From positions 318,654 to 382,653 of the forward strand of contig CAWGEP010000004.1 in NCBI GenBank assembly GCA_963821635.1: a DNA stretch of 64,000 bases, given 5' to 3'. Below the pieces are notes generated by a model. It worked only from the letters and a program-made list of their open reading frames with translations. It did no database searches and was not told where the DNA came from. This stretch comes from an uncultured bacterium (lineage in GTDB: Bacteria; Zixibacteria; MSB-5A5; GN15; FEB-12). Below, piece by piece: positions 51,990-62,765 of the stretch (position 1 is its first letter; each line of letters begins with the position of its first letter). The position numbers and the translations under genes are program-made.

Positions 51990-53003
51990 CTAGAACCTGT
52001 ATCCGGCGCTGACGCGATAGGTGTCGTCGAGATCAGAATTGTGCAGATAGGCGAAATCCAGAGTGATCTTCTTGATATTCACACCCCCGCCGGTGGTGAA
52101 GTTCCCGATGTCAAACCCAATCCGCCCAAAGACCATATCACGATACCCCAGCTCCCACCCATAATGGGTGTCCATCGACAAAGCTCCGACCCAGTATTGG
52201 GCGGCTGTCTTGAGCCCTTCGAATTTTATCTCGCTGCTGGCCGAAAACCGTCCGGTGAAATCCTTGTAGCTGTGGAAGACCGAGAAGCCAGGCTTCACGG
52301 TCGGATAGATCGATTCGCTGTGGCTTCCCTCATTGAAGGTCTTGCCGGAGTATCTGATGAATCCGGTCGTGATGTCGTTCACCATCAGCCCGATATCCAG
52401 AAACGAGTACGGGTGACAGAGCGCCCCGGCATCCATGGTCAAGCCCATACCTGATTCAGTTCCCAAGTCGCGATATATCACTTTGGCCGTCAGGCCGAAG
52501 TCGATCTTGTTCTTGATTCTCCCGGCTACCGAGCCGGCTACCAGGACATCGGCGTGCGAGACTTCGCTGACCACATACGGCCGGTCGAACTGATTCAACT
52601 GCGTGATCTGAATTCCTCCGCCTCCAAGGTAGTAGACGTAGAATCCAAAGGCCCGGATAACACTGTTTTCTTTCGGCCGGGCATCGACATAGGAGACAAA
52701 GTCGTGATTCAAGAGCGATCCGAACGTCTCCGCGTGCATCGCGGTAACATACCGTCCGGCAAGCTGATCCATCCCGGCCGGATTCCAATAGGCGGTGGTG
52801 CCGTCGAATGGTCCGGCGAGGACTGCCCCGCCGAGCGCCAGACCGCGGGCTCCGGCTCCTAGCGAGAACGGGTCACCGGCATATTTGGCCGCCGAGGCTG
52901 TCGAGCTCATCAGAAGCAGAAACAAAAACGCCGCGGCCGATCTGTGATAGCCGATTCGGCGGCAGGCGGTTGGGAAGGTCGATCTGTTCAATAAGCGCAG
53001 CAC
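51990..53003 (-). CDS. PorV/PorQ-family outer-membrane beta-barrel protein (start uncertain)
   Basis: GAGARGLALGG...AYWNPAG; DFAY; C-terminal YRF. Confidence 0.8.
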   Translation of the reverse strand: MLRLLNRSTFPTACRRIGYHRSAAAFLFLLLMSSTASAAKYAGDPFSLGAGARGLALGGAVLAGPFDGTTAYWNPAGMDQLAGRYVTAMHAETFGSLLNHDFVSYVDARPKENSVIRAFGFYVYYLGGGGIQITQLNQFDRPYVVSEVSHADVLVAGSVAGRIKNKIDFGLTAKVIYRDLGTESGMGLTMDAGALCHPYSFLDIGLMVNDITTGFIRYSGKTFNEGSHSESIYPTVKPGFSVFHSYKDFTGRFSASSEIKFEGLKTAAQYWVGALSMDTHYGWELGYRDMVFGRIGFDIGNFTTGGGVNIKKITLDFAYLHNSDLDDTYRVSAGYRF

Positions 53004-53124: not shown

Positions 53125-53745
53125 CTATTTGGAGTCGGCCGCTTTGTCGGTCGTGGTCTCCGAGGTCTGCTTCGCGTCTTTCGCCGCAGCACACTTGGCC
53201 GCGCATTCGGCTTTGGTCATCGAGGCGCAGGCCGCTTTGTCCATGCCGGCGCAGGATTTCATTTTGGAATCGGTGGTCGAAGTGGCCACAGCCGGAATCA
53301 CCTGGGCTTCGAAACCCTTGTTGGAAACGGCCGAAGTCAGGCTGGCTTCTTTGCACTTGCTCGGATCCATGCAGACCAGCGCGGTGCCGGTCTTATAATC
53401 CACGCTTACAACCTTCATCACACCGGGGACTTTTTCGAGGGAAGCGCGAACTTCGCTCTCGCAATGGCTGCAGGTCATTCCCTTAACGGACATGCTGACC
53501 ATGGAGCCTTTGGCAAACGGGCATTCTTTGCCGTCGGCCGCAGCAGCGGTGGTCATCGAATGAGCGGCGCAGCAGGCTTTGCCGTCAGTCGCGGTAGTAG
53601 AACTGGCCAGCTTGCCATCGGTATTGGCAGTGGTGGTCGAGGCACTGGTGGTGGTCTCTTTGTCACCGCCGCAGGCGAACGTCGGGGCAGCGATCAGGGC
53701 GAGGAGCGCCAGACACGCCAGGCTCAACATCATGAATTTTTTCAT
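53125..53745 (-). CDS. Secreted heavy-metal-associated (HMA) domain protein with Cys-rich flanks
   Basis: Signal peptide; VKGMTCSHC; extra Cys in the N- and C-terminal tails. Confidence 0.85.
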   Translation of the reverse strand: MKKFMMLSLACLALLALIAAPTFACGGDKETTTSASTTTANTDGKLASSTTATDGKACCAAHSMTTAAAADGKECPFAKGSMVSMSVKGMTCSHCESEVRASLEKVPGVMKVVSVDYKTGTALVCMDPSKCKEASLTSAVSNKGFEAQVIPAVATSTTDSKMKSCAGMDKAACASMTKAECAAKCAAAKDAKQTSETTTDKAADSK

Positions 53746-54141: not shown

Positions 54142-56973
54142 TCACCGTATTATCACCAACTTCCCGATCTGCACTTTGCCATCAGCTCCCCTCCACCGCC
54201 CAGTAATACAGACCTGACACCACCGTCTGGATATTCCGGTTGATCATATTCCAGGTCTCGTGATGAGCATTCGGATCGGATGGATCTTTGTCATGAGGGA
54301 CTTCAGCAACCAGATCGCCATCAAGAGTCAGGATTCTAACCGTGCATTTCGCCGGGACATTGACGAAATGTATCAGTCTTACCCGGTCATCGCTGGCGTC
54401 GCTGGTTCGGCCTTCGAACCCGGTGTTCCGGTATTTTCCATCAGCTAGGTACGGGTTGGGGTAGACATATACGGGAGGGAGTGTCCCTGCCAATTGAGCC
54501 GAGTCAGCGAAAGCATATCCGGTCTGCATGCCGAGAGTCTTGGAATCTTCGAGGGGCGGCACCCCTTGAGTCGGGTCTCCCCAGTTGAAGGCAGTTACGT
54601 TGACATAGTACTGCATGGTCGGGAGTAAGATTCGGGATAGTGAACTCGTACTCGTAGTACTTCCAGAAGCCATCTGGGGTTAAGTACGTTGAGTCCAACG
54701 TCGCTCCGGGTGGGGGAAGCACAGCGTTGGGATAGATCTTCCTGATCTGCGTACGTCTGTCCAAAGACACTGGCATTAAAGTCATGCGGAACGAAAGTAG
54801 AACTGGGAATCCGGAAACTGAGCCAATCTCAAGTGGATAGCTTTGAGTGTATCTCAATGGATCAAAGAGCGAGTCATGACATGGATCAGTTCCATGACCG
54901 TACAGGCATTTCAGCCGTATCAAGCGTAAACGGCACATCCTTGATCACCCAGGCGCCGAACGAGCCAGATTTCGGATTCCAGATGTACTTGTCGTAATCC
55001 TGTCGATCATAACTCGCGACCAGTGACAAGCTGGATTCCCGGTCATCAAGTCCGTAATAAATTCTGTACCCTTCAAAATCCTGAAGATTAGTCAGGAGAT
55101 TCCGAGCCGTCTCACTGTTTCTTCCATTGAACCGCACACGGATTCCGTGATAAGCCTGCGAGAGCCAGAACTTGGGCTGAGGCGGTGGTCCGGGTGCCCG
55201 CCAATCCGGCACACCATCCCCAGTGTAGTAGGTGGTATCAGCGTTCGTCGGCACCCAGCGACCGTTGACGAATGTTGAGTCCAAAACACAGACTCTGAAT
55301 TTCCCTTTGAATCCGTCCCCGTCCGTGTCCACTCCGGGGTTATCAAAGGCCCACTCGGCTATCTTTGCATTGTGGGCAAGGCTCGAAAAATCGACATGAG
55401 CATACCAGCCATCGACATCACCACTCGCGAGACGGCTCGCCCCAAACACGTCCTGCTGAAATGTATCCCCGGCAATAAAAGCAAAGACCACCGTTTTCTC
55501 ATCACCGCGACGGAGCTCCAACGGTCCCGTGGACAAGAGCATAGACGGGGAGCCCCCGTATCCATGCGACCACAGATTGCCCCAGTAGGATGGTTCCTCC
55601 CAAGTAGGATCATTGGGCTCGATCTTCTGTATGCGCGGTTCATCCGGATCAAACTCTCCATTGGTCATGACCGAGTACTTGTCGGGGTCGCCGGGCGGAG
55701 TACCGGTTCCCCCCGTCCCGAAATCCCACCCTCGCTGACCGAGCGGTACTCGATGCCGCGGTCCGTAGTCCATTTCTGGTCGGAAAGTCCACCACGAGTG
55801 CCACCAGTTGAAGCTGGGATTCCACGCTTCTTTCGGAGCATCGAGAAGCTTAACCCCGATTATGCTTCGATCAGACTTGCTGGGTCCTGAATTCACCCAG
55901 ACCGGCGGGTTTTGAAAGATGTCTGGCTGCCCATCGATACTTGCCGCCCACGCAATATTCAGGGTGTCGACAAATCCGCATCCTTGCCATGACGGCCAGC
56001 TGCGCAAATAACCCCCTGTTCCGGAAGTCGCTATCAGATTATCCGAGGGCTGCATGTGCCCCACTTCTGGTTTAACGAAAAGGCCAACATAAACGGCGTG
56101 CAGATCCTGACGACCAATGTTGGCTATTTTATACTCGACTAAAATAAAGTTGTTGACCAAAGCGTTGGACCACTCTGATGATGTCTGAGTAATGCTCATT
56201 TCCAACGGTTGGTGCAGCCTGTGAGTGCGCCAGTCGGTCAACAGCCCCGGTAATCCCTGGAGAAAAGTATCTGTGTAAACCGCGCGAAAGTCTTGGTCGG
56301 ATCGGGCCTGAGCGGCGGTGAAGGGATCAAGGAGCGAGGCCCTATAGAAATTCCCGAAGGGCGCAACGTCAGGGTATAACTCAAAATTCATTCCATCGGG
56401 TCTCCTTTCGTCGAGACCAACTGACACCAGCGTGTCCCCCTGATCGGTGATCCCACCAACCCAAAGCCCGCCAGAGCGGATGCACTTGTCGCCGGTCCCC
56501 AACGGAAATTCGCCGGCATCGTATTGAGAGCCCCAGACCACCGAGCCTGAGTGACACCCGGAAGAATCGGCCGTGTATGGCGTGGGAGAGAAGTTTTGAA
56601 CGGGTGGGGCATATTGCCCAGAGAGGGAAAACTGTGAGACACCAATCATGCCTCCATTAGTCATGACCAGCGACAGCCTCCCTACATCGTGCGTAGCGGT
56701 ACAATAAGCAAGACCACGAGATACTGATGAGACTTGAATCGGCCGGATCGAATGATCTTCCGTTAATCGGGTGGAATCTCCTATAATCAAGCGCCGGCCA
56801 ATCAAGTTATCTGCGATTGTGATTGGCGAAAGACAAACCACCAACCACATCAACAAGACTGCTCGATTTGTTGTAGGACTCACCCGTCCCCTTCCAAGGA
56901 GATCTGCAATTTGCATTTCCTTCGCCATGCGGCCTGAATTCGCGTCGCTCACAGAGGTTCTCCCGCAGTTCAC
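54142..56973 (-). CDS. Large secreted protein with T9SS type-A-like C-terminal domain (about 3 frameshifts; start uncertain)
   Basis: Joined ORFs 54886..56973, 54504..54938 and 54182..54673; ends VYVYPNPY...SGLYYWAVE..DGKVQIGKLVIIR*; DTDGDG Ca-binding-like motif. Confidence 0.75.
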
Positions 56974-57203
56974 AGTCGCAGACTCAGTCGATCACACTCT
57001 GCACAGATCGCACGTTGAACGCCTATGTGTGCCGAGCGACGGCAGATACACATGCACTGATGTGCAGAAGGTACCGCTGGATCAGCTACCAACTGTGGCG
57101 CCTGTTCCGGCTTGATCGCTCCTAGGTTGTGGGGGGGCATGCGGCCCCCTTCCACATCCAATGGTCCCGCGCCAACCGCAAAGTGAGCGCGGTCCCTACC
57201 GAG

Positions 57204-57440
57204 TCAAGGCAGAGGGTTGCAGTAGTATGCGTTATTCCAGCATGCAGATGCCGTATTCCTACAAATACCGAGAACCCAATGCCCAATGTTGCCACCGGGC
57301 CCGCCGATTTCGGGTGGACAGCTAATGTGGCAGCACGGATCGTCGCCTGCAAGTGGCTGCTCAGCTGTCCCTAGCACTAATGCAAATGCAAGGGCAAAGC
57401 AGAAGCATGCCGTAGCGAGCATGGCCTTCTTCTTCGTCAT
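57204..57440 (-). CDS. 78-aa secreted Cys-rich peptide
   Basis: RBS AGGAGG; MTKKKAML...VLGTA signal, then CC-x3-C-x18-C-x6-C-x6-C. Confidence 0.8.
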   Translation of the reverse strand: MTKKKAMLATACFCFALAFALVLGTAEQPLAGDDPCCHISCPPEIGGPGGNIGHWVLGICRNTASACWNNAYYCNPLP

Positions 57441-57484
57441 GTTAATTCCTCCTACGAAATTGACGTTTAAGAGTTGAGAATTGA

Positions 57485-58087
57485 TCAATCGGCTGCAGCC
57501 GTTTCTTTCAGAAATCTATCGACATCGTCCGGCAGCAGCGCCGCCGGGATCACCCGCCGGACGGTGAGATCGTCGTCCACCACCAGATTGAATGGGAACG
57601 TGTTTACTTTGTACCGGGATAGCCAGACGGACCTGCGATCACAAAGAAATAGGTTCGACAGTCCGGAAATCCGACGCAGGTTCTCGAGTCTCTGGACATC
57701 TCCGCCCGACAGGAAGACGATACGATTTCGCACTGAGCTATCCGGGATAAGAGTTGTCAATCCGGTGACTTCCTCATCACAGACCATACAATCCGGGCTG
57801 ATGACCCCGATGATCGCGCCGCCCGAGCTGTGTACGAGCGAACTCAAGCGGTAAGTGCGGCCATCCAAATCATCAAATTCACTGTCCTCCAGGGTATCAC
57901 CAATATTGAGCGTATTCATTCCAGCCAGAATCTCATCGCGAAGCTCTACTCGATGCTGTTGCAGCGCCGCTTCTGTCTTCTTGTTGAGCGCGTCCGATAT
58001 GAGCTTGCCGCCAAACCAACCCAGGGCCAGCGCTCCGACTACGATGAAAATCCAAGGAAGAATTTTGAAGTGAAAGAGTCGATTCAT
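57485..58087 (-). CDS. Membrane-anchored thioredoxin-fold (redoxin) protein
   Basis: N-terminal TM; IGDTL....DLDG; SPDCMVC; NTFP cis-Pro loop. Confidence 0.8.
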   Translation of the reverse strand: MNRLFHFKILPWIFIVVGALALGWFGGKLISDALNKKTEAALQQHRVELRDEILAGMNTLNIGDTLEDSEFDDLDGRTYRLSSLVHSSGGAIIGVISPDCMVCDEEVTGLTTLIPDSSVRNRIVFLSGGDVQRLENLRRISGLSNLFLCDRRSVWLSRYKVNTFPFNLVVDDDLTVRRVIPAALLPDDVDRFLKETAAAD

Positions 58088-58404
58088 ATTCTCCGCCCGA
58101 GCTATTCGTTCCGGACCACAAACGATTTGTCTGTGCCCACCCCGACGCTAAGTCTACATTACATCGGATCCCCCCCCCTTGTCAAGTGAAATCTGGACTA
58201 TTTTGTCTTGATACGGCCACTCCTCCCCTGGCCCGCACGCTAAGGGGTGGAGCACCGGACCAATTTACTCCCACACCAAGGTGTGGGGCACCAGTAGCCA
58301 GTATCCATGAAACGAAATTGAAAATGCGGTAGCCATGCCCTGTTATTATATTAGGCCCACGCAATCCAAATTCGGTTCGCCGCGCACGCGAAGGGAGATC
58401 AAAA

Positions 58405-58833
58405 ATGTCCAAACGTCTGCTCTTAGGCTGGCTGGTGGTCTATATCGTCCAGAGCCTGTCCAGCTTCCTGATTCATCACGTCATCCTCGGAAGCACCTAT
58501 GCCGCCATGGGGCAACTCTGGCGCCCGGATATGCAAAGCAAACTCTGGATGCTGGCGATTGTCGGGGTCTGCAGCTCGTTTTTCTTTACGATCATTTTCG
58601 CCCGGTGGCGGCGCAAACCGGGAATGCTCGAAGGGGGGAAATTCGGATTTTATATCGGGTTCTGGATGAGTTTCGCGATGGCGATCAGCACCTATGCGAC
58701 CGCGCCGATTCCGTTTTCGCTAGCGGTGCAATGGTTTGTGTACGGGACGATTGCGTACGCGATCGCCGGAATGGTTTTGGGTACGATTCTCAAAGAGACC
58801 GAGCAGAAGCAAACGGTCGGGTACGGACTATGA
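58405..58833 (+). CDS. Four-TM membrane protein (DUF1761-like)
   Basis: RBS GGGAG; four hydrophobic helices; G.KFG..IG motif. Confidence 0.65.
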   Translation: MSKRLLLGWLVVYIVQSLSSFLIHHVILGSTYAAMGQLWRPDMQSKLWMLAIVGVCSSFFFTIIFARWRRKPGMLEGGKFGFYIGFWMSFAMAISTYATAPIPFSLAVQWFVYGTIAYAIAGMVLGTILKETEQKQTVGYGL

Positions 58834-58848
58834 GGTTTAGGACAGCGG

Positions 58849-59857
58849 TCAGGCGGTTTTCAGGCAGATCGGAAACGAAGCGTACAGATCATGGGTGTGA
58901 GCAAGGTCACACCCCGGCAGCCTCCCTGGCAGCGGGCGAAAAATTCGCAGGAATCGGCAGGTACCGTGGATGCGCGAGCGGGGGAATCTGGCCATGGCGG
59001 TCATGGCCGGGTCGTTCCAGAGATCGCTTAAGGATCGTTGCCTGATATTGCCGACCCGGAACTGGTCATCGAGCAGCGAAGTGCACGGGAAGACATCTCC
59101 CCTGGCGGCGATATACATGATCTGGACACCGGCCACGCAGGGATGAAAATAGTATTCCGACGGGAGCGGGCCGAAGCCGGGGCCGAACATCTCTACGGGA
59201 GAGTTGCGGGTGGAGGCGCCTTCGACAAACGCTTTCAGGCGGTCGCGGTGTTCCCGGAAGAGCAGGCGCTGCACAACATCTTTGCGCTTCCCTCTCCCCC
59301 ACGGCATAAAATTGCAATAGCGGATGTGGGTTACCCCTTCGCGCTTGGCGAGCTGGATGAAATTGGGGGCATCATCGAGATTTTCATGCCCGAGCAGCAT
59401 GGCGAGATCAAGCTGCAAGCCGAGTTTCTTGCAGACGCGGACAGCTTCGATGACCTTATGAAAGTCTTCTTCGGTGGCGTTGCGCATGGCTTTGTTGTGC
59501 TGGGGATCGGAGCCATCGAGACTGATCTGGACATAGGAGATTCCGGCCTCTTTGAGAGAATCGGCCGCGGTTTTCATCGAGCAACAGGCCGTTGGTGGTG
59601 ACGCCCTGGGTGAATTTGCCCCGGGCATGGCCATAGGAAACGATCTCTTCGAAGTCGTTTCGCATGAGGGGTTCGCCGCCGGTCCAGCCGATGGTTTTGG
59701 CGCCGAGTTCGACCAGGCTGTCGATCACGGAAAAGCATTCGGTGGTGGTGAGTTCATCGACCGCGCGGCGGGCGGCGGCGGTGTAACAATGCGGGCATTT
59801 CAGATTGCACTGGTGGGTGATCTCCCACCCGATCATCTCCGGCTTGTCAGAACGCAT
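58849..59857 (-). CDS. Radical SAM/SPASM protein (frameshift near 59570 and a compensating pair at about 58950 and 58900)
   Basis: WEITHQCNLKCPHC, TGGEP, QISLDG; SPASM CVAG...GDVFPC; alternate frame restores CRFCEFFARCQGGCRG. Confidence 0.88.
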
Positions 59858-60014
59858 AGAAGCCAACCTGTCTTTCTTCGGGGGCGCCAACGGCATTCAC
59901 AGCGGGCGCCCCATAAGCCGCCCCGGTCATTCGAACCGGAGCGTCGCGTCATTTCTCCCAGTCGGCGCTGCGCTCAATGAGAGGTCAGTGAGGCGCGGCG
60001 CCGTCCGCCGAGCA

Positions 60015-60107
60015 TCAGTTTGATCCTCTCGGCAGAATTTCAAACAGCTTGCGGTAGCAGGGGCAGGGAATCGCCTTCGGTGTCTGCGGTTTCTGTACCA
60101 GCTTCAT
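60015..60107 (-). CDS. Putative RiPP precursor peptide, 30 aa as read; absent from ORF track
   Basis: RBS AAAGGAGGTGA; ATGA overlap with the upstream rSAM stop; MKLVQKPQTPKAIPCPCYRKLFEILPRGSN. Confidence 0.7.
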   Translation of the reverse strand: MKLVQKPQTPKAIPCPCYRKLFEILPRGSN

Positions 60108-61432
60108 GTAGTCACCTCCTTTCGTGTGCCTGAATGGTGGCGGAGCCTGAGCATCTCTTCGAGATTATATTTCCATGAGCAGCAGGCTCCATGAGTAGAT
60201 TGCTTCAGATCAAGCCCCTGACGGGGGCAGCCTCCCAAACAAAGTGGAAGGATGTGGCACTCCCGACATGCGGACAACTGAAAGGGGTCCCAGGATAGAA
60301 AGCGATTGAGTTTCCGCTCCTGTGGCGGCGTGCGGGAATCCGAAAAGACCGAGCCGACCGCAAGGGAGCGGTCGAGCGAGATTTCTTCCCAGCACTTGTA
60401 CAGATCGCCGGTCGGGGAGATGACAAAGGCGTTCTCGGAATCAGCGCCACAATGTCCTCCCGGCGCCAGCATGGGGTACTCGACCGCGGCCAAACCGGAG
60501 TCGGCCAGAGGTCGATAGAATTTCGTTTGCATCGCAGCGAATGCTCTGGTCGAGAAGCAGCGGCCGCGAATATCGGGACAAGTATTGGAGTGGTGGTTGA
60601 CCGGGGCAAAATAGAGATTGAGGCGAGAAAGAAGGTCGCGGCGCTCTAGTTCGTCGACAAGCTCCGGAACGGTGGCGGCGCTGCCCGAATCGACGTTGAC
60701 GCGAACCGTGATCTGGAGAAGATCCGCGGTTTCCCGGAGGTTCGACAGGATGACCTCGAAGGTCCCCTGCCCGTTAGCGAGCCGACGACGGGTGTCGTGA
60801 ATTCGGGCCGGGCCATCGAGGGTGACCTGAATGTCAGTAATACCCAACTCCTGCAGTGTGATCGCCAGAGCACGAGTGAGGAGATAGCCGTTGGTAACGA
60901 GCGAAGTGGGGAGCAGATTCAGGCGGCGGCGTTGCGAGAGGTCCCGGAGTCCGAGTTGGAGGCGTCGGATAGTATCGACGCACAGGGTCGGCTCGCCGCC
61001 AAACCACGTGATCAGCAGGTTGCGGGCACGTTCGGCCCGGTGCGAAGCAAATTGCAAAACAGTGTCTTCGGTCTCCCTGGTCATAAACGACGGCTGACTA
61101 CTCTCAAAGCAATACTCGCAGCGGAAATTGCAGGACAAAGTGGGTGCGATCGTGAGAAACAGGGTCTCCCCGGCAAAGCGCTGGCGGCGATTCCTGACAA
61201 TTAGAGCGGCCAGTTCATCGGCCTCATTCGGGACGAGAAACTTGCCGTCACACAGGACCTCATGGAAGTTCCGTTCAGACTCGGTCCGGGGTGAGTCCGG
61301 GGCGCTGAGCAATCGCGCGACCGAGGGAAAGTTCTCCGCCTCAATTTCGGCCAGGGCCGCGGAAGCGGAATTGAACAAGAGATATTGATTATCATCTGTC
61401 GAGATAAGGATGTTGAAGCGAGAAGCCTTCAT
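60104..61432 (-). CDS. Radical SAM/SPASM peptide maturase with N-terminal RRE-like extension
   Basis: About 85-aa N-terminal domain (YLLFNS...LAEI); CNFRCEYC; WFGGEP; CGAD...GDLYKC...CRECHILPLCLGGC. Confidence 0.92.
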   Translation of the reverse strand: MKASRFNILISTDDNQYLLFNSASAALAEIEAENFPSVARLLSAPDSPRTESERNFHEVLCDGKFLVPNEADELAALIVRNRRQRFAGETLFLTIAPTLSCNFRCEYCFESSQPSFMTRETEDTVLQFASHRAERARNLLITWFGGEPTLCVDTIRRLQLGLRDLSQRRRLNLLPTSLVTNGYLLTRALAITLQELGITDIQVTLDGPARIHDTRRRLANGQGTFEVILSNLRETADLLQITVRVNVDSGSAATVPELVDELERRDLLSRLNLYFAPVNHHSNTCPDIRGRCFSTRAFAAMQTKFYRPLADSGLAAVEYPMLAPGGHCGADSENAFVISPTGDLYKCWEEISLDRSLAVGSVFSDSRTPPQERKLNRFLSWDPFQLSACRECHILPLCLGGCPRQGLDLKQSTHGACCSWKYNLEEMLRLRHHSGTRKEVTT

Positions 61433-61673: not shown

Positions 61674-62765
61674 CTATTTCCGCTTTTTGCGGTTGGCTAC
61701 GAAATCCCACAGGACATAGCTGCCGAGATCATCGACCGAGGCAAAATAGGCGCGTCCGCGATTGAGTTCGGTCAGGCGCTCGACAAATTTCTGGAGATAG
61801 GGATCATCGGTGACCATGAAGGTAGTGATCGGGATTTTCTTTTTGCGGCAGATGACGGCCTCGTCAAGGGTGCGATTGACGATGCGGGGATCAAGCCCCA
61901 TCGGATTTTTGTACACCTGGCCGTTGGGACGGGTGATCATCGAGGGTTTGCCGTCGGTGACCATGAAGATCTGTTTGTTGGCGTGCTTTTTGCCGAGCAA
62001 AATTTGCCGGGCGACGCGCAGGCCGGCCTGGGTATTGGTGTGATATGGTCCGGCGCCGATGTACGGAAGATCTTTGACGGAGACTTCCCAAGCGTCATCG
62101 CCGAAGAGAACTATGGAGAGATCGTCCTTGGGATATTTGGTAAGGATCAGTTCGGTGAAGGCCATGGCCACCTGCTTGGCGGGGGTGATGCGGTCTTCAC
62201 CGTAGAGGACCATCGAGTGCGAGATGTCGATCATAAGCACGGTGGCGCAGGTGCTGGTCTTCTCCGACTCGAAAACCTCGAGATCGTTTTCCTGCATGTT
62301 CATGCCGAGGTCGCCGGAGCGGGCCACGGAGTTGAACAGGGAGGCGGTGAAGTCGATGTGCCCGGGGTTATCGCCGAACTTGAAAGAACGTTTTTCCGGA
62401 AGGGGTTCGTCGGAACTGCCCCCCTCGCGCGGAAGGCGGTGATCCCCTTTGCCGGAGGCGCGCATTTTCTCAAAGATCTGGTTGAAGGCTTCTTTGCGAA
62501 GGCCGCGTTCCCCTTTGGAGCTGAGTTTCAGTCCGTCCGGGGTTTGGCGCACCATATCGGATTTTTTGAGCAGGTCTTTGAGGTTCTCGAGATCGTACTT
62601 CTCGTCGAGGACCCCTTGCTCCTGCAAACGTTTCATCAAGGCCAGGGTCTCCTCAACATCGCCGTTCATGCGCATGAGGAGATAGTGGTAGATCGCCATA
62701 AGATCGGCGAGATCCTTGAGTTTGGCGAAGAGCTCGTCGTTCCATTCGGAATAGACGAATTTCAC
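61674..62765 (-). CDS. von Willebrand factor A domain protein
   Basis: MIDAS DISHSM, TNTQAGL, VTDG. Confidence 0.9.
   Translation of the reverse strand: MKFVYSEWNDELFAKLKDLADLMAIYHYLLMRMNGDVEETLALMKRLQEQGVLDEKYDLENLKDLLKKSDMVRQTPDGLKLSSKGERGLRKEAFNQIFEKMRASGKGDHRLPREGGSSDEPLPEKRSFKFGDNPGHIDFTASLFNSVARSGDLGMNMQENDLEVFESEKTSTCATVLMIDISHSMVLYGEDRITPAKQVAMAFTELILTKYPKDDLSIVLFGDDAWEVSVKDLPYIGAGPYHTNTQAGLRVARQILLGKKHANKQIFMVTDGKPSMITRPNGQVYKNPMGLDPRIVNRTLDEAVICRKKKIPITTFMVTDDPYLQKFVERLTELNRGRAYFASVDDLGSYVLWDFVANRKKRK

Follow-up and report, generated by a model that had tools for sequence, protein, structure and literature searches.

Why does the gene of a small secreted peptide with six cysteines lie directly behind the gene of a membrane-anchored redoxin, and do both belong to a common system? 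This question is raised by a locus of an uncultured bacterium of the phylum Zixibacteria, located in a stretch of 64,000 nucleotides (contig CAWGEP010000004.1 of assembly GCA_963821635.1, positions 318,654 to 382,653 of the forward strand), which was analysed as a whole and is called the window in the following. A preliminary description, made from the letters of the window alone, had viewed the two genes as an uncharacterised disulfide-peptide toxin or signal system with a dedicated foldase. We find that the redoxin gene and the peptide gene are neighbours three times in this genome and at most of the best-matching loci of the phylum. Moreover, they have a third conserved partner that goes beyond this two-gene view, a large, putatively secreted protein called BIG here, the front half of which diverges together with the core of the peptide.

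The anatomy of the locus is as claimed. The redoxin gene encodes a protein of 200 amino acids with a CxxC motif and is followed, after a spacer of 44 nt, by an open reading frame of 78 codons with a signal peptide, which is preceded by an AGGAGG ribosome-binding site (57453-57448, 7 nt ahead of the ATG). Counted on the translation, the cysteines of the peptide core are spaced CC-x3-C-x18-C-x6-C-x6-C. The coordinates of these and of all other features are collected in Table 1. The two hairpins behind the peptide stop codon fold as RNA with -44.8 kcal/mol (z -2.64 versus shuffled sequences) and may act as mRNA processing element, stabiliser or attenuator that would set the ratio of peptide to BIG expression. 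Promoter prediction found no sigma-70-like site upstream of the redoxin gene on the minus strand.

Redoxin paralogues followed by a cysteine-rich reading frame, for which the preliminary description had suggested to search, were found both in the same genome and across the phylum. In the own genome of the window (G000; 3.57 Mb in 7 contigs), a six-frame search with the peptide identified two further copies (E 1e-21 and 9.5e-13), both located directly 3' of a redoxin homologue, so that the genome contains three pairs. In one of these paralogous pairs (L074) the redoxin is 99% identical to the redoxin of the window, the signal peptide is identical and the core has diverged; in the other pair the redoxin is split over two frames. 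A conserved leader with a variable core, also anticipated, is thus seen within the genome, and it is seen across the phylum as well. Using the redoxin of the window as single query, a match was obtained in 16 of 41 related genomes, and a profile built from 11 redoxins detected matches in 100 of the 285 genomes of the phylum that were searched (E <= 1e-10). A script that asked for a downstream reading frame on the same strand with a signal peptide, a CC motif and at least four cysteines found such a peptide at 26 of the best 30 redoxin loci, and at 27 of these 30 if locus L047 is included; the 30 loci take in the window itself and the loci used to build the profile. Starting from the peptide, a profile of 37 sequences matched 77 of the 285 genomes (E <= 0.01), and 54 of the 67 strong matches (E <= 1e-8) are situated within about 750 nt 3' of a redoxin match, a tally for which two match tables were compared by eye. 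Up to five redoxin copies are present per genome. The related genomes are not independent samples. The pairing of redoxin and peptide is far beyond chance.

The peptide belongs to a family that is visible only by profile searches. The peptide of the window matches no Pfam or NCBIfam family at E <= 0.01, and a word-based search in 5.8 billion proteins returned the peptide itself and one paralogue, nothing more. The peptide profile compared with 1.84 billion representative proteins, however, gave 289 matches at E <= 1e-3, 22 of which reach E <= 1e-10, these representatives standing for clusters at 50% identity with lengths of approximately 70-110 amino acids. All members for which names were found are called hypothetical protein, one of them from a metagenome-assembled genome of the Zixiibacteriota, and in the ESM Atlas the best score for the peptide was 0.82 with hypothetical proteins throughout. 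Among the 37 peptides none matches NVEALA (PF14055) at E <= 1, and three match DUF6520 weakly (E <= 1). In each of the 149 representatives listed besides the peptide of the window, the CC motif follows a signal-like N-terminus. Among 150 peptides the CC-C-C-C-C framework is found in 83, eight cysteines in 38 and seven cysteines in 18, and the alignment of the 37 peptides shows the CC pair and the three C-terminal cysteines to be invariant. The distance from CC to the C-terminus is 35-62 residues (median 45; 150 peptides). An A-x-A motif within 16 residues ahead of CC is present in 98 of the 150 peptides, mostly 2-6 residues ahead, and the signal peptidase site probably lies a few residues ahead of CC. 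Besides the cysteines, the columns of lowest entropy in the 150 peptides are those of the hydrophobic, Phe/Leu-rich region of the signal peptide. That the signal peptide is so strongly conserved suggests a function beyond the targeting for export; it might hold the precursor beside the membrane-anchored redoxin.

The preliminary description had named the defensin, knottin and conotoxin-like frameworks, which are mostly eukaryotic, as background for mini-proteins with three disulfides. The six cysteines of the core would form three disulfides; a link to knottins, defensins or conotoxins by sequence or fold was not found, in searches that are uninformative on this point. The AlphaFold2 model of the peptide, built with 150 sequences, consists of a helix (residues 2-26) and a small three-stranded beta core. 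The peptide profile matched nothing under E 0.05 among the sequences of the PDB, and the structural comparisons by Foldseek and VIA with the model of the whole precursor, with a best Z of 2.6, are uninformative because the signal helix dominates the matches.

The redoxin is, judged from its sequence, a membrane-anchored thiol-disulfide oxidoreductase of the TlpA/ResA-like CxxC type with a predicted thioredoxin fold. A hydrophobic stretch at the N-terminus (about residues 9-27 of the translation from the window) recurs in 11 of 11 aligned homologues. In the same 11 homologues the P-x-C-x-x-C motif and the cis-proline are both invariant (P98, C100, C103 and P165; CMVC active site and TFPFN loop in the window). 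The two residues enclosed by the active-site cysteines differ in nearly every homologue of the best redoxin loci. The redoxin of the window alone scores under the cut-offs of Pfam AhpC-TSA (22.5 bits, cut-off 26) and NCBIfam ResA (16 bits, cut-off 170). Compared with solved structures, the family profile finds the thioredoxin-family proteins 2yp6, 4hqz and 4hqs best (E 1e-14 to 1e-8; 2yp6 and 4hqz at 1e-14), followed by ResA (4nmu at E 5e-9, others weaker, to about 7e-8) and then by StoA, Mpt53, TlpA and DsbF. With the orientation taken from the family, the catalytic domain would be located outside the cytoplasm. We consider it probable that the redoxin acts on the peptide, because both are tightly and recurrently adjacent and share an operon structure, and because the cysteines of the peptide are invariant. 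The earlier proposal holds insofar as an uncharacterised cysteine-containing peptide is accompanied by a dedicated membrane oxidoreductase; its term foldase, i.e., oxidase or isomerase, describes a putative direction of the chemistry. The transmembrane helix of the redoxin retains a pair of small residues spaced by three (a consensus alanine and, four residues later, an invariant glycine in the alignment of 11 sequences), and in the signal peptide of the peptide phenylalanine alternates with small residues. These patterns hint at a helix-helix contact within the membrane.

The third partner was revealed by comparing the neighbourhoods of the window and of 20 further redoxin loci on long contigs, in which the reading frames within 8-kb flanks were clustered. 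BIG, with a length of 810-910 amino acids, adjoins the redoxin in 15 of the 21 loci, where its gene either follows that of the peptide in the same orientation or is transcribed divergently from the redoxin gene. Apart from redoxin, BIG and peptide, no cluster occurs in more than 4 of the 21 loci; the peptide cluster itself formed only among the three copies of the own genome, owing to the cut-off of 90 amino acids for reading frames. In a tree of 17 BIG sequences, seven peptide-linked BIGs, drawn from six genomes, group together (97/95) and are separated from the unlinked copies of the own genome. Of these five unlinked copies, four constitute one clade (100/100), and the fifth branches off at a basal fork that is not resolved. 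The linked copies of the genome G119, three in number, lie outside the linked clade.

By its sequence features, BIG would be a protein of the type IX secretion type. Besides a weak match to the type IX C-terminal tail, no Pfam or NCBIfam family was found for BIG: the PorZ tail is matched with E 1e-3 to 3e-3, Por_Secre_tail with 14 bits against a cut-off of 27, and in one of 29 BIG members a type IX tail is matched with 3.9e-6. Distant BIG paralogues of the own genome score above the cut-off of Por_Secre_tail (27.9 and 31.2 bits) and of FlgD_ig, and two of them match fn3, one above and one marginally under the cut-off. Furthermore, the own genome encodes type IX machinery, i.e., SprA (451 bits) and PorU (653 bits), both above the cut-offs. 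The BIG sequence contains a DxDxDG loop of the calcium-binding type and may include an Fn3-like region. All relatives in the databases are annotated as hypothetical, the ESM Atlas returned only hypothetical clusters of the Zixibacteria, the BIG profile matched no sequence of a solved structure at E <= 1, and PADLOC reported nothing for redoxin, peptide or BIG.

A connection between peptide and BIG is suggested by the way in which paralogous cassettes have diversified. Comparing the window with L074, the block 58243-57345 is 98.2% identical over 882 nt (87-100% per bin of 100 nt); 96-100 bases per 100 are identical from 58144 to 57445, i.e., in the redoxin gene and the spacer, and the bins at the edges of the block (58243-58145 and 57444-57345) reach 87 and 91. 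Upstream of 58243 the identity is lost. From about 57345 to 56700, a region covering the peptide core, the following spacer and the start of BIG, the identity is at chance level only, and this break coincides with the boundary between signal peptide and core. Within BIG, the front half shows 52-75% DNA identity and the rear half 75-92%, with identical protein over about 140 amino acids. Expressed as protein identities, the paralogous cassettes of the own genome share 99% in the redoxin, 100% in the signal peptide, 44% (local) in the core, 67% in the front and 93% in the rear of BIG. For the three pairs of G119 the values are 85-91% (redoxin), 65-93% (signal peptide), 32-62% (core), 45-54% (BIG front) and 94-95% (BIG rear), and for a third genome, G011, in which the cassettes have the divergent arrangement, 36%, 32%, 25%, 38-58% and 88-95%. 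In all three genomes, divergence between paralogous cassettes thus always affects the peptide core and the BIG head.

As a control, 15 pairs among six intact BIG copies of the own genome were compared, 10 of them being unlinked pairs. In most of these 10, front and rear are about equally conserved (e.g., 62/64, 76/75, 71/75 and 48/50; largest gap 80/90). The asymmetry of front and rear is thus specific for the peptide-linked BIGs, because unlinked paralogues mostly diverge evenly. As BIG adjoins the redoxin-peptide pair and the mosaic pattern is specific to linked BIGs, the peptide might work together with the BIG head, a suggestion that we make tentatively and rate somewhat below an even chance.

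The fold of the BIG head was predicted for residues 60-560 of the BIG protein of the window using 16 sequences. The model (predicted template-modelling score, pTM, 0.80; mean predicted local distance difference test, pLDDT, 72) is mainly beta. In a VIA-align comparison with 48,161 chains, the best matches are 8ic6_B (Z 19.1; 289 residues aligned with a root-mean-square deviation of 4.9) and 9ju0 (18.7), followed by 7w2t of family GH116 (18.1) and the bacterial glucoamylase 1lf6 (17.5; chain residues 34-275); further matches comprise GH94 and GH65 phosphorylases, aldose 1-epimerases, polysaccharide lyases and the periplasmic domain of YidC. Foldseek likewise finds GH116 best (E 3e-7). The matched chain ranges correspond to the N-terminal beta-sandwich domains of the enzymes, i.e., the galactose-mutarotase-like supersandwich, and the front half of BIG models as such a beta-supersandwich. 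A head of this kind points to a possible role of BIG in the binding or processing of glycans. Neither a catalytic (alpha/alpha)6 domain was seen in the head model nor a beta-propeller among its listed fold matches, and a search for internal repeats of BIG with hhalign on segments of 70 residues found no pair with a probability of 40% or more.

The explanation that we favour, and for which we see about equal chances of being right or wrong in its full mechanism, is that the genome carries three copies of an envelope cassette of three genes that is conserved among the Zixibacteria, the locus of the window being one of them. The peptide precursor would be exported by the Sec system. As long as its signal peptide keeps it at the membrane, the redoxin would oxidise its cysteines or rearrange them to the correct pairs. 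Signal peptidase would then release the disulfide-locked mini-protein into the periplasm, where it might bind the variable head of the cognate BIG as subunit, cap, inhibitor or ligand. Finally, BIG would be exported and displayed via the type IX system. Of this scheme, the analysis documents the anatomy of the genes, their conservation and linkage, the mosaic pattern and the modelled fold of the BIG head; the formation of disulfides, the direction of the redoxin chemistry, the cleavage site, the binding of the peptide to BIG and the biological role are deductions.

Several observations weigh against this explanation. Regarding the linkage, three of the best 30 redoxin loci are without a peptide (L031, L038 and L044), all of one family of the order, the redoxin of L038 being devoid of the CxxC motif. 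Of the strong peptide matches, 12 of 67 have no adjoining redoxin, and one more borders a contig end. Eight regions, which include 11 of these 12, were inspected, G004:C170 being left out: in one genome, L105, L106 (G100:C1:853000-871000) and L107 are tandem arrays of two to five CC peptides without a redoxin. Two of the inspected loci, in contrast, favour BIG as third partner, one consisting of a peptide followed by BIG without a redoxin and one of a redoxin remnant, a peptide and BIG. BIG is missing from 6 of the 21 loci. Moreover, each of the 285 genomes searched is matched by the BIG profile, the number of first-look candidates per genome being 7-76 and tandem arrangements being frequent, and no CC peptide was found upstream of the 11 non-cassette BIG copies that were checked in the own genome. 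The mosaic could also have arisen by gene conversion of the rear half of BIG and of the redoxin without any physical interaction of peptide and BIG.

Regarding the chemistry, ResA, Etrx-like proteins and StoA are mainly reductants fed by CcdA, and Mpt53 and DsbF have oxidase character; the group to which these proteins and TlpA belong includes reductants and oxidants alike. The role of the redoxin as foldase can only be inferred because its nearest solved relatives are of the ResA/Etrx type, mostly reductants. The own genome contains two genes of the CcdA/DsbD type (DsbD_TM) together with one VKOR domain, which is compatible with either direction of the redoxin chemistry; DsbB was looked for in this genome, which is 92% complete, and none was found. 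The core of the peptide model reaches only moderate confidence (pLDDT 64-81), and the pairing of the cysteines is a prediction. Finally, relative to the intact BIG of L074, which has 909 amino acids and to which the BIG of the window is 75% identical over 609 amino acids, the window carries six single-base, frame-breaking insertions (54917, 54830, 54797, 54753, 54626 and 54191), none of them in a homopolymer. The cassette copy of the window may be decaying, because BIG is broken into three frames. Broken frames are found in the BIG of the window, in redoxin and BIG of the third copy and in the neighbouring radical SAM gene, and they may represent decay or assembly errors. Among the sequencing runs, no RNA run is listed for this sequence, and two DNA runs contain 5-6% of the sampled words. 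The own genome has about 12 close BIG copies; three of them belong to cassettes, four stand intact in a tandem array and five are fragmented into 2-7 pieces, and this uneven breakage looks like pseudogenes or a locally poor assembly.

An extension of the favoured explanation, which we regard as doubtful, is that peptide and BIG constitute a specificity pair, in which the BIG head, itself hypervariable, would have the hypervariable peptide with its disulfides as cognate ligand or lock, and the redoxin would be a leader-guided folding enzyme. If so, core and head would diversify jointly by exchange of cassettes between conserved flanks, and the pair might be used for recognition of kin or partners or for tuning of adhesion or glycan binding in this uncultured phylum. 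Polymorphic ligand-receptor loci are represented by the pherotypes of the staphylococcal agrB-D-C and the Bacillus comQXP and by the plant S-locus SCR/SRK of self-recognition. The cassette resembles these in that, in the three genomes, a hypervariable block spans a small secreted peptide and the adjoining half of a larger protein between conserved flanks. However, BIG possesses no kinase or signalling domain, binding of the peptide by BIG is putative, and the divergent arrangement of G011 is unlike the agr-type pattern in that the redoxin diverges as well.

Among the explanations that differ from the favoured one, the peptide could be a stand-alone secreted antimicrobial or toxic peptide that receives its disulfides from the dedicated redoxin, with BIG as an unrelated neighbour or carrier. 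Bacteriocin operons with a disulfide accessory protein are the functionally closest described systems. Sublancin, with BdbA and BdbB, is encoded in a bacteriocin operon with dedicated thiol-disulfide oxidoreductases. In the pediocin PA-1 operon, PedC is the dedicated thiol-disulfide accessory protein and raises the potency of pediocin (PMC4919988). Like these operons, the cassette combines a small exported cysteine-containing peptide with its own thioredoxin-fold accessory protein that would establish the correct disulfides, and a conserved leader with a hypervariable core, several copies per genome and tandem arrays of peptides are features typical of antagonism loci. The pediocin and sublancin systems, however, originate from Firmicutes, encode ABC exporters and immunity genes and make cationic or glycosylated peptides with double-glycine leaders, whereas the cassette is characterised by a Sec-type signal, anionic peptides (median net charge -3, range -10 to +3 in 150 peptides) and a large partner of the type IX type. 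The 21 loci have in common neither an immunity gene nor an ABC exporter, and neither a C39 peptidase nor a double-glycine leader. Furthermore, a Sec signal alone gives the peptide no route across the outer membrane, and both the adjacency of BIG and the asymmetry of the linked BIGs are left unexplained. A toxin or signal function of the peptide, as named in the preliminary description, is unproven, and we judge the antimicrobial explanation to be unlikely.

Similarly unlikely in our view is the explanation that the redoxin serves as a reductant, which would keep cysteines of the peptide or of BIG reduced for a metal or cofactor, the peptide being a periplasmic mini-protein for metal handling or a redox relay. 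It draws on the solved relatives ResA, Etrx-like proteins, StoA and TlpA, on the two CcdA/DsbD_TM genes, on G-H and C-D motifs as possible ligands, which occur in 79 and 83 of 150 peptides, respectively, and on the CopZ-like gene behind the cassette (Table 1). ResA, TlpA, CcmG and Etrx proteins share with the redoxin the N-terminal anchor, the thioredoxin fold, the CxxC motif and the cis-proline loop. They are housekeeping proteins of the cytochrome c, copper-centre and Msr pathways, with one or few copies per genome and a fixed CxxC dipeptide. The cassette redoxin differs from them by its copy number, by being followed by a peptide and by its highly variable CxxC dipeptide, which fits poorly to a single fixed redox task. 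Moreover, only about half of the peptides have the histidine and the aspartate, and the remainder of the core is hypervariable, which would not be expected of a conserved metal site. In addition, the CopZ-like gene lies beside the cassette in the window only, and the solved relatives also comprise Mpt53 and DsbF.

A slender probability is assigned to the explanation that BIG is a secreted protein binding or cleaving glycans and that the peptide acts as its periplasmic inhibitor or chaperone, i.e., as a pro-domain in trans silencing the head until export; this would be a special case of the favoured explanation with a defined role of the peptide. It would agree with a supersandwich head as found in the N-termini of GH116, GH15, GH94 and GH65 enzymes, in aldose epimerases and in some polysaccharide lyases, with the co-diversification of head and peptide core and with the absence of a type IX tail from the peptide. 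The matched domains are, however, mostly non-catalytic N-domains, no (alpha/alpha)6 domain accompanies them in the model, catalytic residues were not identified in the BIG head, and most BIG paralogues are without a peptide.

That the peptide is the precursor of a radical SAM-modified peptide of the ranthipeptide or sactipeptide type is scarcely credible: two radical SAM/SPASM genes are present 1.4-4 kb upstream and the first of them, encoding 442 amino acids, resembles maturases of cysteine-rich peptides, but such genes accompany the cassette nowhere outside the window (0 of 20 other loci within 8-kb flanks), a membrane-protein gene on the opposite strand (58405..58833) separates them from the cassette, and the Sec-type signal would lead the peptide out of the cytoplasm, away from a cytoplasmic radical SAM enzyme.

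The favoured three-gene explanation combines an element of a known kind, the dedicated redoxin with an exported cysteine-containing peptide, with an unusual one, the co-diversifying partner of the type IX type. A few bacteriocin operons of Gram-positive bacteria are known in which small secreted peptides have a disulfide enzyme of their own. Here, at least 289 clusters (50% identity) of such peptides with a defined cysteine framework are encountered in an uncultured phylum of the Gram-negative type. They represent a natural library of short scaffolds with three predicted disulfides, each with a predicted matching folding enzyme. Moreover, the cassette offers a first functional handle on BIG, a family that occurs in all Zixibacteria genomes searched and frequently numbers dozens of copies, and it allows paired diversification of a mini-protein and a domain of a surface protein to be tested. 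The size of all three genes is suited to heterologous expression. No description of the cassette was found in the literature, in searches that did not include most subscription journals.

Table 1. Positions of the cassette and of its neighbours in the window.
Feature	Position	Strand	Remarks
Region upstream of redoxin (promoter region)	58088..58243	minus	part of the near-identical duplicated block
Redoxin gene	58087..57485	minus	open reading frame; transmembrane anchor, CMVC, TFPFN
Spacer between redoxin and peptide	57441..57484	minus	redoxin stop 57487-57485, peptide ATG 57440
Peptide gene	57440..57204	minus	open reading frame; MTKKK n-region, hydrophobic h-region, six-cysteine core
Signal-peptide part of peptide gene	57351..57440	minus	about residues 1-30; F/L-rich h-region
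Core (mature) part of peptide gene and stop codon	57204..57350	minus	about 46 aa
Two GC-rich hairpins	57110-57205	minus	directly 3' of the peptide stop; without U-tract
BIG gene	56973..54182	minus	three frames: 56973..54886 (695 aa), 54938..54504 (144 aa), 54673..54182 (163 aa)
CopZ-like heavy-metal-binding-domain protein	53125-53745	minus	206 aa; just 3' of the cassette
PorV/PorQ-family outer-membrane protein	53003..51990	minus	337 aa; PorV2 102.5 bits, PorV_fam 83.9 bits, both under cut-offs
Radical SAM/SPASM gene 1	61432..60104	minus	442 aa; TIGR04463 306.8 bits, TIGR04334 305 bits, both under cut-offs
Radical SAM/SPASM gene 2	59896..58849	minus	split over two frames: 59896..59456, 59634..58849

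The radical SAM genes as members of the cassette and the CopZ-like gene as a hint on metal handling were both rejected, as they are neighbours of the cassette in the window only. Neither the CopZ-like gene nor the PorV-family gene is a conserved neighbour in the 21 loci. Several minor observations concern the remainder of the genome and of the window. Further BIG copies of the own genome are located, for example, at C6:760171-771439, and fragments matching the BIG profile weakly are situated about 1-4 kb upstream of the L107 peptide array. The sole VKOR domain of the own genome (C6:179941-180285) lies inside an open frame of 685 amino acids, which suggests a fusion protein, possibly a general periplasmic disulfide oxidase. 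In the window, a reading frame of 30 amino acids with a C-P-C motif (60107..60015) overlaps the end of the first radical SAM gene and might encode its substrate. Finally, the region 61674-63901 (minus strand) encodes a weakly ChlD/MoxR-like ATPase of 379 amino acids followed by a von Willebrand A-type protein of 363 amino acids with a DxSxS motif, recognised by eye, that resembles a metal-ion-dependent adhesion site (MIDAS); a reading frame of 397 amino acids overlapping this region on the opposite strand is probably spurious.

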